DNA of 64,000 nt from a phage: sequence record PX418213.1. The stretch is one strand, 5' to 3'. The first letter of the stretch is position 1; every line of letters starts with the position of its first letter. A program made the position numbers and the translations under genes. Under the pieces are notes generated by a model. It was not told where the DNA came from. It saw only the letters and a program-made list of their open reading frames with translations, and searched no databases. Below are positions 2,658-63,500 of this stretch, in pieces.

Positions 2658-3050
2658 ATGGAACAAGTATATTGGCGTCAGATTGACCCTAGTTTGGTGA
2701 AACGTGCGGAGAAGCTGCTACAACGTTGGTTGGGGGTAAGACAAGCCTCCTTCACTTTTCCGGAACAGCAAATAGATGACCCCTGCATTGGTGTTTTCCT
2801 GTCTGGATATGCCGGGGAATGGGAATTGGATTGGAATGAATTGTCTGCTATGGGCTTGATTGTTGCCCTAAACTTCTCTATATTCCATCCACGTGGTTTG
2901 GCCATATGTCGTGTGCCTGATGACGGTTGTTCGCCCCATCTTTTACAGGTGGAAGATGATATTTGGGAGTACACTCCAGATATTCTCAAAGAGGCTAAAG
3001 AACAATTAAACCGTGTTGGGATATATGTTCCGGGATTAAATGATGAATAA
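2658..3050 (+). CDS. hypothetical protein, tandem paralog 2
   Basis: Paralogous to 2220..2648; preceded by AAGGAGG. Confidence 0.45.
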   Translation: MEQVYWRQIDPSLVKRAEKLLQRWLGVRQASFTFPEQQIDDPCIGVFLSGYAGEWELDWNELSAMGLIVALNFSIFHPRGLAICRVPDDGCSPHLLQVEDDIWEYTPDILKEAKEQLNRVGIYVPGLNDE

Positions 3051-3237
3051 GGAATTTTGGAAAATAAAAGGTAAGATTTCTAAGTGGAATACTACAGGGA
3101 AAATTAGTAAGTCTCTAGAGATAGAGATAGCTAGAATGTTTACTGATCCTGATTTTGATATAGGAAAGCTAAGTAAAGTAGATGCTAAAAAAGTAGATAA
3201 GTATATGGAAGAGATTAGAAGTATTTTAAGTGTCTAA
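3040..3237 (+). CDS. hypothetical small protein (65 aa)
   Basis: ORF track; followed by an intrinsic terminator. Confidence 0.35.
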   Translation: MMNKEFWKIKGKISKWNTTGKISKSLEIEIARMFTDPDFDIGKLSKVDAKKVDKYMEEIRSILSV

Positions 3238-3244
3238 TCCACAT

Positions 3245-3270
3245 AACCGAGTCATTTTGGCTCGGTTTTA
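3245..3270 (+). terminator. rho-independent terminator
   Basis: Stem aaccgag / ctcggtt with 9-nt loop, followed by a T-run. Confidence 0.55.
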
Positions 3271-3313
3271 CCCGTACTCAAGACCAATGATAGCACCATC
3301 CGGAAAATTTTAC

Positions 3314-3342
3314 TTGCAGGATGCCCAAAATCTTGATATAAT
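3314..3342 (+). promoter_or_regulatory. sigma70-type promoter
   Basis: TTGCAG, 17 nt, TATAAT, in an AT-rich context. Confidence 0.4.
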
Positions 3343-3841
3343 ATTTATATTGAATTGAGAGACATTAGTAAAAATTGATTTTGCTAATTTTTCTTGTTTA
3401 CAATCCGCGATACGGAACAGTTAGGCTGCCCCATTAAGGGTTGTTTTAACTGTTACGTGTTAGTTTTTAAACAAATAATTAATAGAATACTTAGCGATCT
3501 ACATCCCGTAGGAACCCTGGTAAGGCCTCGAAGCAACCTAGTGTGAGGTGGTTGTGAAGTGAGACGGGAAGAGTGAAAAACTCTGAGAAGTGATGACGTA
3601 AGGTATACTACATCTAGTATGAGCTAGTACATGAAGCATTAGGTGAGCAAATCTGGCTTAGCGGCCATCCTCAAGGATTTGTGCGGTATAGTGAAGCGGC
3701 AGTGTAGCGTGAAAGGGGAAGTTGCCACCCCCCTTCAGTATTTGCGATTAATTTGTTGAGAAATTGACAGTAACAGTTGTTCTATTCTTTCTGAATAGTC
3801 CTAAAGAAAACTTATTTCATTTCCAACACAGGAGTATTGTT

Positions 3842-6628
3842 GTGTTCTCAATCCTACAAGGTCATGCAGGATTTCATCGCGATTTAGCCACAGGCAATTG
3901 GCGAGAAGTTAAAGCAGAAGACTATCTTTTTGCTAAAAGATTTTCCTCAAAGCATCCTGAAGGTAAACCAGCTTCAATGCCCTTCAAGTTTGATGTAATT
4001 GATGAAGTTGATCCTCAAACCCTAGTAGAAATGCTTCCTCTTATGAGACGTTTAACGTCTGACCCTCATATCGTTGCGGTACGAGGTCGATGTCTTGCAC
4101 CTAAAAATAATGTGCGACGTAAGAAGGGCAACTTTAATATATCTAACCCAAGTCATATAATTGCAATGGACGTGGATGGTATTGTAGATACAGGTGGTTG
4201 TAACAAGTTTGATCTTGTTGGCATGGCTCGACATATTATTAGAATGTTAAATAGTATTAGTGAGGATATGTTTCCTCTTGATGCAGGGTTTATTGCTCAT
4301 GCATCGTCTTCGGCTGGACTAAAACCAGGTATCCGAATGCACTTAATACTAGAATCTAATGTTAAAGTAACTCAGGGTCAAATCAAATTCTTATTTACAT
4401 CTATCAACGAAAGTAGTAGACAAAAGTATGGCTTTGATATTGCCGACTTAGCCTATTACTCTTCCGTACAGCTCCATTACTTTGCAGATCCGTTATTTAT
4501 CGATGGTATAGTAGATCCGTTTAAAGCGGAGGGTGCTTCACGTCTGGTATTTGTTAAGGGTTCTAAAGTAAATTTACCCAATAATCTGGTTGACTATGAA
4601 ACAACTAGGGGTGAGTTTAAAGAGGAGTTTTACTCTTTACTCGATCAAATTAAAGGTAAAAAAGCTGCCTCTGATAAAGTAGAGGAAACTATCAGCGAAC
4701 TAGAAGAAGCTGAGGATGGAGTGTATCTACGTATCATACCTAAACTCTATCACAGAGCTTTAGAGGATGGTGTTGACTTTGCATGGCTAGAAAAAGAAAT
4801 CCGTCCAGCCTTATCAGAGTATATTGCAACTAAAGATAATAGTCGTAATATTCAAGATTACTTTAATAACGGTCGTAAACAGGCTCTGAAAGCATTTGTT
4901 AATAATTCTAAACGTGATATACCGGATGTTTTAAAAGGTATTCCACTTAAAAAACTAGAAACTAATTCTCTAGAAACTGATAACTTCTTGAAATTAAATA
5001 CTGTACCACCAGAAGGTTATATGACTTTTGTAAAAGCAAGTCTAGGTACAGGTAAAACTACAGCGGTTGTGCGTTGGTTAGACTCAGGAGTTATTAAAGG
5101 TAATTTCTTAGCAATTACCAATACTAGAGCGCTAGTATCTTCAAATGCTAAGAAATTTAGTGCAGGACAATATGATAAGTCTGTAGATATGCTTAATTTT
5201 AAGCGTGGTGCTATTGACCGTATGTCCACAACTATTCACTCTTTGCATAAGTTCAAGAGTTTTATTGGTCAAATTGATGCAATCTTTATCGATGAATGTG
5301 ATGCTGTAATGAATGACCTATTATTCGCCCCGGTTGTTAAACAACGTCGTGAATGTATTCAGGTTCTTCGAGACATTCTTGCAACTGCAAAAATCATTAT
5401 ATTATCTGATGGGGATATTAGTGCAGAAACAATTGAAGCATATGGTTCTTTGATTGAGTTTGATAAACCGGTTGCATTTTATAATCATCACCGTAAAATG
5501 CTATCAAAAGCTCATGCTTATGAGTTCCCGGATGAATCCAGTATTTGGGTTGCACTTCAGACTTCTCTAGAGATGGGTGAGAAATCTATCCTAGTATCTG
5601 ACTGTGGGCCGGATGAACTGAATGAGAAGGGCATGGCATTACGTCGTAATACGGGTGCGTTAGTTAAGGAAATCCACTCAAACTCTACGTCTGATGTAGA
5701 TATTCGACGTATTCTGGATTACACAACTAATGAGCTAATTGATCAACAAATTGATTGCTTATTATGTAGTCCATCGGTAACAAGTGGTGTTGACTTTAAC
5801 TACTTTGATAACGTATTCGTTATTACTAGAACCTCAAACCAAGCGCCAAACATGCGTTTCCAAGCAATCAGGCGCGACCGTGGTGCTCAGAACATTTATT
5901 ATTTTATTGATAAATCTACGAGTGGGTTCTCCGCAGGTTCTGAGCAATATAACATTGATGAAGGTTGGCTGGAGTTAGCACAGCAATTATACGCACGTCG
6001 CAGGGAGCTGGAATCTAGAAACTATACTAGTACTCTACGTTATTACTTGCTTGATCAGGGTGCAACTATTGATATTTTCAGTGAAAGCTGGGGAAATATC
6101 GAAGGTGCAGGAAAAGAGTATACGGAAGAGCGAATCAAAGCTATTTTGTATTCAACTCCTGATTATTGTGCTCCACGCCATGCAGATGCGTATGAAGCTA
6201 AACTACTTCTTGTTCGCTATTACCATCTTGAGTCTATTAAAGATGTAACAGTTGAGCATGTTGAACAATATATCAAAGATAAACCGAATGATCGAGCTGC
6301 ATTCTTCCATAAGATGCACGAGATGTTCTGGGAAGATATTAAGAAGTGTTCAAATGTCACTATCAAACCCTTTATAGAAGCTCTGAAAGGTAAGAAGAAA
6401 GATTTCTTCCTTAAAACAGGTCAGAGTGCTAACCCAAAATATGCGAGAATGTATCTTGGTATGATGGGTATTGGCAAGGATATGAACACGGAGAATATTG
6501 TAGACTGGTACAGAACCTATTGTAAAATCGAGTGTATGCCAATCCCCCTAAAATTCATGACAGAGGAAGAGAAGGCCATGGCAGAAGAAGTAATGTCCGA
6601 ACTTGGAGCAACCAATGAAGATACATAA
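3842..6628 (+). CDS. large helicase-domain protein (possible replication initiator or origin-binding helicase)
   Basis: Walker A ASLGTGKTT and DExD-like box IFIDECDAV; start refined to in-frame GTG 3842 preceded by AGGAG at 7-nt spacing (ORF track starts at 3764). Confidence 0.5.
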   Translation: MFSILQGHAGFHRDLATGNWREVKAEDYLFAKRFSSKHPEGKPASMPFKFDVIDEVDPQTLVEMLPLMRRLTSDPHIVAVRGRCLAPKNNVRRKKGNFNISNPSHIIAMDVDGIVDTGGCNKFDLVGMARHIIRMLNSISEDMFPLDAGFIAHASSSAGLKPGIRMHLILESNVKVTQGQIKFLFTSINESSRQKYGFDIADLAYYSSVQLHYFADPLFIDGIVDPFKAEGASRLVFVKGSKVNLPNNLVDYETTRGEFKEEFYSLLDQIKGKKAASDKVEETISELEEAEDGVYLRIIPKLYHRALEDGVDFAWLEKEIRPALSEYIATKDNSRNIQDYFNNGRKQALKAFVNNSKRDIPDVLKGIPLKKLETNSLETDNFLKLNTVPPEGYMTFVKASLGTGKTTAVVRWLDSGVIKGNFLAITNTRALVSSNAKKFSAGQYDKSVDMLNFKRGAIDRMSTTIHSLHKFKSFIGQIDAIFIDECDAVMNDLLFAPVVKQRRECIQVLRDILATAKIIILSDGDISAETIEAYGSLIEFDKPVAFYNHHRKMLSKAHAYEFPDESSIWVALQTSLEMGEKSILVSDCGPDELNEKGMALRRNTGALVKEIHSNSTSDVDIRRILDYTTNELIDQQIDCLLCSPSVTSGVDFNYFDNVFVITRTSNQAPNMRFQAIRRDRGAQNIYYFIDKSTSGFSAGSEQYNIDEGWLELAQQLYARRRELESRNYTSTLRYYLLDQGATIDIFSESWGNIEGAGKEYTEERIKAILYSTPDYCAPRHADAYEAKLLLVRYYHLESIKDVTVEHVEQYIKDKPNDRAAFFHKMHEMFWEDIKKCSNVTIKPFIEALKGKKKDFFLKTGQSANPKYARMYLGMMGIGKDMNTENIVDWYRTYCKIECMPIPLKFMTEEEKAMAEEVMSELGATNEDT

Positions 6629-58948: not shown

Positions 58949-59373
58949 ATCGTCGATTCCTTATAATGTAATAAGTTTACCGCCGATAGGCTTTAAGATA
59001 TACCCAATTTTTAAAGAGCGCGGCGGTAAACTTCCCGCCGTGTAGTTCGTCATTGCCGCCCTACGAGATAAATAATAACAAACAACGAAAAAGGCGCAAC
59101 CTTATATTTGTAAAGAAATGTAAAGACAAACGCCACCGGACACCGTGCGGCGACCTGGGCGCAGCGCATTAAAATTAAAAGAAACGGGCGCGCGAATAAC
59201 ACAAAACATAGCAGATAGGCAAGTAATTTTTTCACTTATATTTGCTTTGGGGGTATTGACAAAATCTAAAAAGCTCGTGGCAGCGATAAACGACGTGGCC
59301 CCTTATGATTGGATGGCCAAAAACTTTATTGCGTTCTGGGGCGTTTTAGGCGCATTCTAGCCTTGTTGATAAC

Positions 59374-59834
59374 TTATCCACAGAAGCAAAAATGAAATTT
59401 TCCTAGTTATCCACTTGACTTTTATTTTCCAGTGGATAACTACTTATTTTATGAAATAAATTAATTGACTTTTATTTGCTAGTATGCATCGGAAAGATAG
59501 CAGACTAATAATTGCTAGGATGATGATCATGCTGGTGGATTGTAACGGCCTGAATTATTAGCAGACTGTTAATCAGGGAAAATCTCATTAGCCAACTAAC
59601 TATTTCATGATATATAATATACTTATAAATTAATGAGAAATAATAACTATAAGAAATCATCATCATTATAATAATAACTATAAGAAATCATCATCATTAT
59701 AATAATAACTATAAGAAACTATCGGCATAAGTGAGAACCACTATCATTTAAGTTATCCACAACGTTATCCACAGCACAAAATAATTTGACACGATAGGCG
59801 GCGATATGAGGGCTTTTACACAGACTTATCCACA
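59374..59834. promoter_or_regulatory. cluster of DnaA-box-like 9-mers in an AT-rich intergenic region
   Basis: TTATCCACA at 59374, 59744, 59755, 59826; TTATCCACT / AGTGGATAA inverted pair at 59407 and 59431. Confidence 0.55.
59640..59727. repeat. tandem direct repeat, 31-bp unit, about 2.6 copies
   Basis: ataataactataagaaatcatcatcattata repeated with period 31. Confidence 0.7.
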
Positions 59835-59860
59835 GGTTATCCTACTGTATAAATATACAG
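59821..59860. repeat. left arm of a 40-bp inverted repeat containing a DnaA box
   Basis: cagacttatccacaggttatcctactgtataaatatacag; reverse complement of 63118-63157 with one mismatch. Confidence 0.7.
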
Positions 59861-59956
59861 GGTAAAAAGGCAGTGTTAACGACTGCAATCAATTTTAGGC
59901 GGCCTAAAACGCTTTCTAACGAGCTAAACGCTGCGGGGTAATATTAAAGTAAAGAC

Positions 59957-60003
59957 CCAACACGTCGCCCTGATGGCTTCAGTGCGTCGCCCTGGTGGCT
60001 TCG
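59957..60003. repeat. tandem direct repeat, about 22-bp unit, two copies
   Basis: cgtcgccctgatggcttc / cgtcgccctggtggcttc. Confidence 0.5.
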
Positions 60004-60149
60004 CCGTGTTTTGCTCGTTACTACACCGCTGCGCGGTTAGCATAAAATTAGGCGTTAGGCAAGAAAAATAAAAAAGTAAAATAATCTTTGCCTATGCTAG
60101 AAAATTACCTTTATCATTCACTCACCGATTAACGAGAGGGGCCGAACAA

Positions 60150-62859: not shown

Positions 62860-63117
62860 TAATCACGGGGCGCAACTATCCGGGAGTGCCCCCAATTTTC
62901 AAACGATAATCATTCTCATTTGACCGCGCTCGCGATGGTTAGCCTGCTAATGGTTCGGGTGTTACGTGTCGCCTTGTGTGATCGTTAGCGTGCTAACTAA
63001 TTTTCAAGCCTCCTCCAATTTTGCCCTTGTTTTAGTATCTCCACCAAAATAAAACGCGTTAGAATGCGTTTGAGAGCGTTTTAGCGGTATATTAGAATTA
63101 TTCACTACATAGGAATA

Positions 63118-63157
63118 CTGTATATTTATACAGTAGGATAAGCTGTGGATAAGTCTG
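63118..63157. repeat. right arm of the 40-bp inverted repeat, with DnaA-box-like sites
   Basis: ctgtatatttatacagtaggataagctgtggataagtctg; further TGTGGATAA at 63207-63215. Confidence 0.7.
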
Positions 63158-63250
63158 TTAATAACGCCTCAAAATGGCTAGGATTCTGTCAAGTCAAATC
63201 GTGCTGTTAATAAGTCTGTGGATAACTTAAATAACAGTGTTTCTCACTTC

Positions 63251-63500
63251 CGTTCTTAAATGAGAATCATTATCATTTGCATTTCACTATCTAACTAATA
63301 ATCATTCCACTTTTTAAATGAGAATCGTTCCACTTCCTGAATAATTTTCGTTCCACTTTCTAAATGATAATCGTTATCATTTGCATTCCTCTTTCTAAAT
63401 GCGAATCATTCCACTTCTTAAATGAGAATCGTTTCACTTTTTAAATGAGAATTATTATCATTCTCATTCCGCTTTTTAAATGAGAATGATTCTTATTATC
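63251..63500. repeat. array of about seven direct repeats with a Fur-box-like palindromic core
   Basis: TTAAATGAGAATC(A/G)TT(A/C/T) units, for example 63256-63274 and 63360-63378; each matches the Fur consensus GATAATGATAATCATTATC at about 15 of 19 positions; an isolated copy at 62905-62920. Confidence 0.6.

Follow-up and report, generated by a model that had tools for sequence, protein, structure and literature searches.

What is encoded by the 600-nucleotide (nt) gap that precedes the D2 helicase gene of T5-like phages? In T5, a classical model phage, neither the replication origin nor the targeting of D2 has ever been defined at the sequence level. Here the question is raised by a stretch of phage DNA of 64,000 nt (sequence record PX418213.1; hereafter the window, in whose coordinates all positions are given unless stated otherwise), which sequence comparison assigns to a T5-like phage (Demerecviridae, Tequintavirus). 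The true non-coding gap spans positions 3238-3841, between a small early open reading frame (ORF) at 3040-3237 on the 5' side and, on the 3' side, a gene annotated in relatives as "replication origin binding protein", which corresponds to T5 D2. The gap region is 99% identical to that of the Salmonella phages SaI_NFG_5581 and Spc35. The initial annotation of this DNA had singled it out as the longest ORF-free stretch of the early region, and indeed no other part of the first ~59 kb of the window extends as far without an ORF of 60 amino acids (aa) or more as 3238-3763 does; as explanations it had offered a replication origin served by the adjacent helicase-domain protein or a structured non-coding RNA. 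Three independent annotations of T5 place in the gap only a terminator and the early promoter T5P32, and neither an RNA gene nor an origin. The comparative analysis presented here indicates that the gap very probably specifies a conserved structured RNA on the + strand, and the balance of the sequence evidence leans towards this RNA being a functional partner of D2.

Comparison of the window with T5, Epseptimavirus and distant phages shows no differences between phages in the promoter, in the first ~110 nt of the transcript or in ~40 nt near the 3' end. The ~300-nt core has the same length in window-type and T5-type phages, yet it is nearly unalignable between them. The core contains a decamer, GCUUAGCGGC, that does not vary among the Markadamsvirinae loci examined and lies at a constant distance from the promoter; its flanks vary by type and stay complementary (CAAAUC/GAUUUG, AUAGAA/UUCUAU, CAUG/CAUG, CACC/GGUG). 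Since the flanks remain complementary though different, they point to a folded single strand rather than to DNA words bound by a protein. The promoter itself, as had been proposed from the sequence, is present on the + strand at 3314-3342 (TTGCAG-17-TATAAT, sigma-70 consensus, with an A/T-rich upstream region) and is annotated as the early promoter T5P32 in T5 records; it is 100% identical in window-type and T5-type phages, and is recognisable in Klebsiella, Pectobacterium, Proteus and Providencia phages. A simple promoter scan flagged TTGATT-18-TACAAT at 3375-3404 instead, which we rejected as probably no promoter, because it falls inside the conserved stem-loop SL1 (described below) and its spacing is not conserved, the spacer being 18 nt longer in phage oselot.

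The predicted fold was obtained by three routes. In the automatic one, MAFFT and RNAalifold applied to 8 sequences yielded 11 helices with 59 pairs, a compensatory double change being seen in 35 pairs; 92.4% of the cells were paired, compared with 38-44% after the partners had been slid by 1-3 columns, the slid controls contained 7-11 double-change pairs, and none of 500 column shuffles matched the observed values. The second route used a covariance model of the 100-nt domain that comprises helices Pe, Pf, Pg and Pm, built from eight near-identical window-type sequences only; the MAFFT alignment of all types was too poor to seed a model, and iteration from the window-type seeds was used instead. 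At the homologous position this first model matched Erwinia-type loci with E-values of ~1e-15, Pectobacterium and Klebsiella loci with ~1e-3, and T5-type and Providencia loci with ~0.1-0.2, and the second-generation model added the Epseptimavirus, Yersinia and My1 types. Matches at the homologous position are found in every Markadamsvirinae type. In the covariance-model alignment (A8, 14 sequences) 97.3% of the cells are paired, with compensatory change in 21 of the 23 pairs, compared with 35-47% paired cells in slid controls. Finally, a hand alignment of ten sequence types, segmented at conserved anchors, contains 58 pairs in 11 helices, 97.4% canonical and compensatory in 53 cases, whereas slid controls reach 36-46% and shuffles 62.8 +/- 1.6%. 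The architecture of ~11 helices predicted by the automatic, covariance-model and hand routes is the same.

The strand that folds is indicated by the non-Watson-Crick cells of the hand alignment: 52 are G.U and 2 are A.C, and this excess therefore places the fold on the + (sense) strand. The suggestion of a structured non-coding RNA is strongly supported by a + strand multi-helix fold, compensatory changes across at least ten sequence types and a conserved early promoter upstream; conservation among relatives, one of the checks proposed at the time, turns out to be conservation of base-pairing across sequence types. The fold also bears on the purine-rich segment, for which the initial annotation had counted about eight GTGA(A/G) motifs. 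The cluster is real and comprises seven exact copies rather than eight, all on the + strand at 3543-3713, where ~0.24 would be expected from the 182 occurrences on both strands of the whole 64 kb; the purine richness is likewise real, the fraction for 3540-3720 being 0.641 and ranking 3rd of 1277 sliding windows (mean 0.503, standard deviation 0.049). All seven motifs lie in loops, junctions or helix ends of the predicted RNA, and the purine richness is therefore explained without iterons. In the T5-type allele the GTGA(A/G) words are not conserved, base-pairing being kept and sequence not. The G+C content of the core is 0.44, compared with ~0.38 around it.

Analysis of relatives reveals that the RNA is present in Tequintavirus and Epseptimavirus and in Klebsiella, Pectobacterium, Erwinia, Yersinia and Providencia phages, and that in every lineage examined it lies directly upstream of D2 in the same orientation. 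Sequence searches matched 536 records with the gap region and 906 with D2. With filters off, the model also gives weak matches that coincide with CUUAGCGG hairpins in the non-coding region preceding D2, at an E-value of 0.2 in Proteus phage Stubb and 1.2 in Aeromonas phage TS3. The non-coding region of the Proteus phage is ~770 nt long and has perfect (12/12) sigma-70 promoters before the RNA and again before D2, with possibly two UUAGCG-type hairpins, one of which is UUAGCC; that of Aeromonas TS3 is ~1.6 kb long and has three CUUAGCGG-type hairpin loops and, at its end, a terminator-like hairpin followed by a T run. Vibrio phages gave no covariance-model match; at the same place they have a promoter-driven, G+C-enriched non-coding region of 0.7-1.1 kb with the similar motifs UGAAGC and ACGUAGAGA. 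As judged from these sequences, the family ranges over the Markadamsvirinae and probably all Demerecviridae.

A link between the RNA and D2 emerges from the way in which the two diverge. Between the window and T5 the neighbouring genes are 88-97% identical at the nucleotide level and the promoter and 5' leader 100%, compared with 55-69% in the RNA core; the D2 proteins are 88.5% identical in residues 1-390, 96.5% in residues 391-928 and 97-100% beyond residue 520. The same pattern recurs in a second subfamily and is far sharper there: in the Vibrio Thalassavirus phages Achelous and Pontus the flanks are 98-99% identical and the non-coding core 50-70%, and the D2 proteins 76.4% in residues 1-390 and 100% in residues 391-726. 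In their own coordinates, Achelous (L043) 1160-1871 and Pontus (L112) 335-1171 have near-identical flanks around a core that is unalignable; the annotated 56-aa gp68 of Achelous lies within this non-coding region and has no Pontus counterpart. In the 36 Tequintavirus and Epseptimavirus loci examined, the identity class of the D2 N-terminal domain predicts the RNA type without exception. The pairs L029/L111, L033/L039, L039/L040 and L110/L054 are too divergent overall to inform on co-divergence. The diversifying unit comprises the RNA core and the D2 N-terminal domain (aa 1-390, 3842..5011, + strand), and one of its boundaries falls at the junction with the part that carries the UL9-like "origin binding protein" homology, namely the superfamily 2 (SF2) helicase core and C-terminus (5012..6628, + strand). 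The recurrence of the pattern and its boundary at a domain junction point to a specific interaction of the D2 N-terminal domain with the RNA or with its DNA, and we infer that the folded RNA is the specific nucleic-acid partner of this domain. Of the proposed origin served by the helicase, the version based on DNA iterons does not survive, its motifs lying in RNA loops and junctions and being replaced in the T5-type allele; the functional link to the helicase does, in that the RNA core and D2 residues 1-390 diverge as one block.

D2 has been characterised biochemically as a bipolar SF2 helicase with UL9-like motifs and a helix-turn-helix predicted at residues 308-329, and has been put forward as the T5 replication initiator (PMC3632103). 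In Pfam only residues 394-533 are matched (Herpes_ori_bp, E 3e-7), and the likeness to UL9 is limited to helicase motifs, with the UL9 DNA-binding domain outside it. Residues 1-390 have no match in Pfam or PDB sequence searches; these searches and PHROGs lend no support to an archaeo-eukaryotic primase as the N-terminal domain, a candidate that had been considered from IIAMDVDG and HASSSAG..IRMH.

We propose the following mechanism. The leader would be transcribed from the early promoter at 3314-3342 and in this phage would form the ~490-nt 5' leader of the D2 mRNA, as there is neither a terminator nor a conserved promoter before the GTG at 3842. The D2 N-terminal domain would recognise the folded transcript, and the nascent or R-looped leader would mark the site and recruit and load D2, making the locus a type-specific primary origin near the genome centre. 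That the leader RNA targets D2 to its own locus, and thereby makes a type-specific origin, is a serious possibility that we hold tentatively. It is favoured over other functions since D2 is an initiator candidate without a known origin, since the diversification resembles that of origin/initiator specificity modules, and since the RNA is far larger than autoregulatory operators and is separable from D2 expression in the Proteus and Aeromonas phages. The position also speaks for it, the locus lying at 59.0-59.5 kb of the 121.75-kb genome in T5 and at 59.8-60.4 kb of 120.6 kb in HASG4, i.e. at ~48.5-50% of T5-type genomes, where a passage in a preprint that cites classical mapping studies places the T5 origins ("near the centre"; 10.1101/866236). 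The wider proposal that T5-like phages choose their origin by RNA, the RNA core and the D2 N-terminal domain forming an exchangeable and rapidly diversifying replicon-specificity module, is more speculative and we advance it with considerable doubt.

Several observations weigh against these proposals. Folded singly, 3494-3740 is no more stable than its shuffled versions, with z-scores of +0.78 (+ strand) and -1.0 (- strand), and because the folding energy is ordinary, the case for structure lies wholly in the covariation; the hand alignment leans towards pairing, and the automatic runs, which agree with it, cover fewer types. The transcription start at ~3349 is predicted from annotation and consensus. 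Co-divergence is sharp in Achelous/Pontus only and moderate in window/T5, and that of adjacent segments could reflect a single recombination cassette. With regard to the origin, GC skew, which in this phage follows transcription, has no inflection at the locus; a repeat finder returned only short two-copy families and no conserved DNA repeats of the kind expected of iterons; and a recombitron study infers that T5 replicates predominantly in one direction, starting at one end of the genome (PMC10055335). The second promoter in Proteus and the terminator-like hairpin in Aeromonas make the RNA separable from D2 expression, which also counts against an action on D2 in cis.

Among the rival explanations, those that deny an RNA altogether are confronted chiefly with the covariation. 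A classical double-stranded DNA (dsDNA) origin, in which GTGA(A/G) words and inverted repeats would act as iterons or binding sites for D2 beside an AT-rich unwinding element, would suit a mid-genome locus that adjoins an initiator-like helicase and has AT-rich flanks, and the motif cluster is statistically real; yet the T5-type allele replaces most of the motifs and preserves the base-pairing, the compensation is strand-specific (52 G.U vs 2 A.C) in a manner not required of dsDNA sites, and both the short, two-copy repeat families and the missing skew inflection speak against it, so that we regard it as very improbable. No more credence is due to a fold formed in single-stranded DNA (ssDNA), i.e. 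in the displaced non-template strand. Sense-strand ssDNA would give the same covariation as RNA, DNA hairpins can accommodate G.T pairs, D2 is UL9-like, and hairpin forms of herpesvirus oriS are recognised by UL9; however, 11 helices with three-way junctions and ~10% wobble are characteristic of RNA and in DNA would have only marginal stability, and the conserved strong promoter reads exactly the + strand. Small protein-coding genes, or no function at all, we consider extremely improbable. The gap contains short ORFs of 42, 50, 33 and 38 aa, those of 42, 50 and 38 aa on the + strand, and PQ488695 (L002) annotates three "hypothetical proteins" across the RNA (3231-3359, 3395-3547 and 3644-3760), which are most likely annotation artefacts: most records, including the three independent T5 annotations, call no genes in the gap, the position, frame and length of the ORFs are not kept among relatives, the gap of the Epseptimavirus locus L029 has no ORF of at least 25 aa, and the substitutions track base pairs rather than codons.

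The remaining rivals accept the RNA and assign it another role. It may be an autoregulatory 5' leader, an operator bound by D2 or another early replication protein that limits translation, stability or read-through of the D2 operon and has no part in initiation; this is possible and ranks second in our view, though it is not the likely answer. The RNA is necessarily part of the D2 mRNA here, with no terminator or promoter between them, a conserved hairpin stands just 5' of the ribosome-binding site, the Aeromonas terminator-like hairpin between RNA and D2 could be an attenuator, co-divergence with the D2 N-terminal domain suits a protein-operator pair, and T4 gp32 with its leader RNA structure provides a precedent (PMC10690425). 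An RNA of 330-1300 nt and at least 11 helices nevertheless far exceeds known autogenous operators, the perfect Proteus promoter after the RNA would bypass the control, there is no obvious cause for an operator to diversify between near-identical phages, and no helix that sequesters the Shine-Dalgarno (SD) sequence is consistent across types. Alternatively, the RNA could be an independent trans-acting molecule (for host take-over, as an anti-defence decoy or as a scaffold) that merely has its transcription unit in common with D2. Its own strong early promoter, its size, modularity and lineage-specific expansions (a 97-nt module described below; the extra hairpins in Proteus and Aeromonas), the separate D2 promoter in Proteus and the terminator in Aeromonas all fit such a role, and an arms race with a host sensor would be expected to diversify the core rapidly. 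Against it, the RNA stays directly 5' of D2 even where the upstream genes differ, no releasing terminator is present in Tequintavirus or Epseptimavirus, and the inclusion of the D2 N-terminal domain in the diversifying block, with its boundary at a domain junction, is not predicted by this explanation, which we consider distinctly unlikely.

The anatomy of the predicted RNA, all on the + strand, can be described from its 5' end. The gap opens with the Rho-independent terminator of the upstream early operon at 3245..3267 (inverted repeat I6, AACCGAGTCA/TGGCTCGGTT, then TTTT), whose presence had been claimed from the sequence and which is annotated as a terminator in T5 and HASG4. Downstream of the promoter, RNAalifold on 34 sequences predicts the stem-loop SL1 (3353..3399), in which AUUAGUAAAA pairs with UUUUGCUAAU and an outer helix GAGAGA/UUUCUU is formed, with compensatory changes in the Klebsiella and Pectobacterium types. 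It is followed by a conserved 5' element with small hairpins (AUACGGAACAGUUAGGCUGCCCCAU, 3400..3444) that is almost invariant in Markadamsvirinae.

Several phages have rearrangements in this part. In the T5-type phage L031 (~1880-2010 of that locus) the promoter and SL1 are duplicated in tandem, and in phage oselot (L003, 1636-1666) ATTTTGCTA occurs three times in tandem within SL1, an expansion specific to this lineage that is given as a repeat_region in the record. Some window-type, T5-type and Yersinia phages have an optional 97-nt module (AGUGAAGCUGACAAGGGAUUUACGG...CCGUAAAU...) directly after SL1, at ~2240-2340 in each of L016, L028 and L037 and at ~655-752 in L111, equivalent to ~3397 in the window. 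A repeated TTTTTCTT borders the module, which resembles either an expansion segment of the RNA or a small mobile insertion; no copy of it occurs elsewhere in the window. In the Epseptimavirus mar003J3 (L006, 1016-1468) the promoter of the leader is directly preceded by an inserted putative homing endonuclease gene, and the alignment lacks the terminator/upstream part that the gap usually has.

The inverted repeat reported in the initial annotation at about 3428-3465 exists, at a different position: its 12-nt arms, 92% complementary, are 3412-3423 and 3447-3458, and the 5' arm lies inside the region of the conserved AUACGGAACAGUUAGGCUGC element. We do not regard this local repeat as the key structure. 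Its 3' arm overlaps the 5' strand of P1, a long-range helix (3448-3456/3770-3778; RNAalifold and compensation), so that 3412-3423 with 3447-3458 and 3448-3456 with 3770-3778 are competing pairings. At the P1 pair 3452-3774, 14 sequences have G-C and 14 have A-U; the G-to-A change of Epseptimavirus disrupts the local inverted repeat, its compensation being found in P1 and not in the local hairpin, and for this reason P1 appears to be the pairing under selection. A switch between the two alternative structures is possible. Together with an irregular extension (3465-3480/3746-3763; RNAalifold), P1 encloses a closed RNA domain of ~330 nt (3448..3778, RNAalifold).

Inside this domain, P2 (3499-3504/3702-3707, 3' strand GUGUAG) is 100% canonical in 10 types, in which it takes such forms as CUACA/UGUAG, CUGCG/CGCAG, CUGUA/UACAG, CUGUG/CACAG, CUAGAA/UUCUAG and CCAUA/UAUGG. 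A GATC (Dam) site at 3495-3498 lies directly 5' of P2 and is kept in most types, being TATC or TAGC in Pectobacterium phages. A pairing of GGCUGCC with GGCAG before P2 was considered and dropped, as it can form in some types and not in the T5 type. Domain 1 (3499..3584) comprises the 5' strand of P2 and the helices Pa (3505-3509/3564-3568), Pb (3516-3518/3523-3525), Pc0 (3527-3530/3560-3563), Pc (3533-3538/3550-3555) and the hairpin Pd (3570-3574/3580-3584); over the 10 types Pa and Pd are 100% and Pc0 and Pc 97% canonical, most pairs have compensatory changes, and the same helices appear in the automatic predictions. Domain 1 is followed by a conserved purine-rich single strand (GAGAAGUGAUGACGUAAG, 3585..3602) with one GTGA-type motif; the window type shares GAGAAGUG with the Erwinia, Pectobacterium, Klebsiella and Yersinia types.

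Domain 2 (3603..3691) consists of Pe (3603-3608/3686-3691), Pf (3611-3616/3640-3645), Pg (3647-3654/3675-3682) and the mini-hairpin Pm (3655-3657/3664-3666), which presents the invariant loop UUAGCG (3658-3663), with a pyrimidine-rich internal loop AUCCUCAA at 3667-3674. Two three-way junctions are predicted, the first of Pa, Pb and Pc0/Pc and the second of Pe, Pf and Pg. A pseudoknot between the UUAGCG loop and a 5' UGCUAA was dropped, because UGCUAA already belongs to the covarying SL1; likewise, inspection found the role of AUCCUCAA as an anti-SD sequence or as a partner of GAGAAGUG inconsistent across types. The domain-2 model has a weak second match at 3435-3513, near CUUAGCGAUC (3489-3498), whose E-value varies between phages (0.02-0.9); it could represent a further, degenerate copy of the UUAGCG module and recalls the multiple UUAGCG-type hairpins of the Proteus and Aeromonas relatives. 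In the T5-type RNA (L026, which is T5, and L111) a segment GGGGGTGCGAACGAAAAGAGC that is absent from the window lies upstream of domain 2 and contains GTGCGAACG. The reverse complement of the latter, CGTTCGCAC, agrees in 9 of 11 bases with the UL9 box I site of herpes simplex; this is probably coincidence, because the similarity between D2 and UL9 is confined to helicase motifs.

On the 3' side of domain 2, a junction UGAAGCGGCA (3692-3701) leads to the 3' strand of P2 and to the covarying hairpin Ph (3713-3718/3730-3735, loop AAGUUGCCACC), found elsewhere as GGGG/CCCC, GUGG/CCAC, AUAUGA/UCAUAU and others. Between the RNA domain and the ribosome-binding site, RNAalifold predicts the hairpin Pz (CUAUUC UUUCU GAAUAG, 3782..3798), whose place is taken in other types by CUAUC/GAUAG, CUUUCC/GGAAAG or AUACUAU/AUAGUAU; the last hairpin of the leader is ~45 nt from the ribosome-binding site. 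The D2 gene then begins with the SD sequence AGGAG (3830-3834, + strand) and the GTG start codon (3842-3844, + strand), the latter in agreement with the annotation of the coding sequence in relatives. A weak hairpin is predicted over the SD and the start, the window has no terminator between the RNA and D2, and inspection of the printed sequences revealed no SD-sequestering helix that is consistent across types.

As regards the surroundings of the gap, the 65-aa ORF at 3040-3237 (PHROG 29527, unknown function) is absent from T5 and the other aligned relatives, which have an indel there. Further upstream, the adjacent paralogous genes 2220-2648 and 2658-3050 both contain DUF7415 (E 1e-34 and 2e-32) and are labelled hypothetical or "exonuclease" in relatives. 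Near the 3' end of the window, ORFs of 60 aa or more are also missing from two further long stretches, 59361-60149 and 62860-63440. The gap contains no tRNA or tmRNA, in agreement with the earlier remark that no tRNA-like T-loop was seen, and no tRNA gene is found in the whole 64 kb.

In order to relate the RNA to known families, the window was scanned with the covariance models of Rfam 15 (4227 families), another of the checks proposed initially; there was no match at gathering thresholds, and nothing relevant was found in 9 related loci, permissive thresholds included. The archaeal C/D snoRNA sR17 (17.6 bits vs a threshold of 36, E 0.18) was rejected as a result of chance CUGA/UGAUGA words, stemming from CUGAGAAGUGAUGA. 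Host mimicry found no support, as no complete E. coli genome gave blastn similarity. A likeness of GGCUUAG..GCCAUC to the L11-binding hairpin of 23S rRNA is not claimed.

Among characterised systems, RNA II of ColE1 offers several parallels: a promoter several hundred nt upstream, a transcript of ~500 nt with a specific fold and purine-rich segments, a location at or near the start of replication (an origin role being proposed here), and sequence that diverges between related replicons with the fold kept. A promoter and a structured RNA of ~490 nt, as predicted, are present in the window. In contrast to ColE1, with which there is no homology, the transcript runs on into a protein gene and the partner would be a phage SF2 helicase domain rather than RNase H or Pol I; nor is there a promoter-like site on the - strand within 3240-3841 from which an antisense RNA of the RNA I type could start. 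T4 oriF and oriG and the primary origin of T7 likewise involve a phage promoter transcript at an origin near replication genes. These origins depend on a promoter together with an AT-rich unwinding element and are not known to require a conserved tertiary architecture of the RNA, whereas the T5-like locus appears to be selected for an elaborate RNA fold. The lambdoid ori iterons with the N-terminal domain of the O protein, and herpesvirus oriS with UL9, are comparable in that the element, which lies beside or within the initiator gene, diversifies together with the recognition domain of the initiator, the remainder being conserved; unlike the strand-specific fold described here, they are dsDNA with repeated binding sites.

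The gp32 pseudoknot and gp43 hairpin operators of T4 are also structures in the 5' leader of a replication gene and may be bound by the protein that this gene encodes (gp32: PMC10690425), but they are tens of nt long and lie beside the ribosome-binding site, whereas the T5-like RNA is 330 to more than 1000 nt long, modular and, in some lineages, separable from D2 by a promoter or terminator. With GOLLD and ROOL it has in common that they are large multi-helix RNAs, often phage-borne, of unknown function and with lineage-specific expansions; unlike them it is always found directly upstream of the D2 helicase, and their covariance models do not match it. By analogy, the RNA would most resemble a transcription-dependent origin element of the ColE1 RNA II type or an autogenous leader operator, and it is a member of none of these groups. 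We found no annotation or paper that describes it; a listing in a computational catalogue of 10,000 candidate phage RNAs is possible. It appears to constitute a new family of structured phage leader/non-coding RNA, unusual in having a co-diversifying protein partner.

An RNA architecture supported by covariation, in which the helices are defined and one hairpin is invariant, can thus take the place of the unannotated 600-nt gap. Its specific and testable candidate partner is the segment of the first ~390 residues of D2, whose changes parallel those of the RNA core. Several deposited genomes have most likely spurious "hypothetical proteins" annotated across the RNA. For the engineering of T5-like therapeutic phages, this suggests that the RNA region should be left intact. 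Should the RNA prove to be autoregulatory or trans-acting, its size would still place it near the top of the conserved structured RNAs known from a well-studied coliphage family, and Rfam does not contain it. If, on the other hand, it does mark the origin, it would represent a new way for a bacterial virus to specify where its replication starts, and would identify the long-unknown origin of T5.

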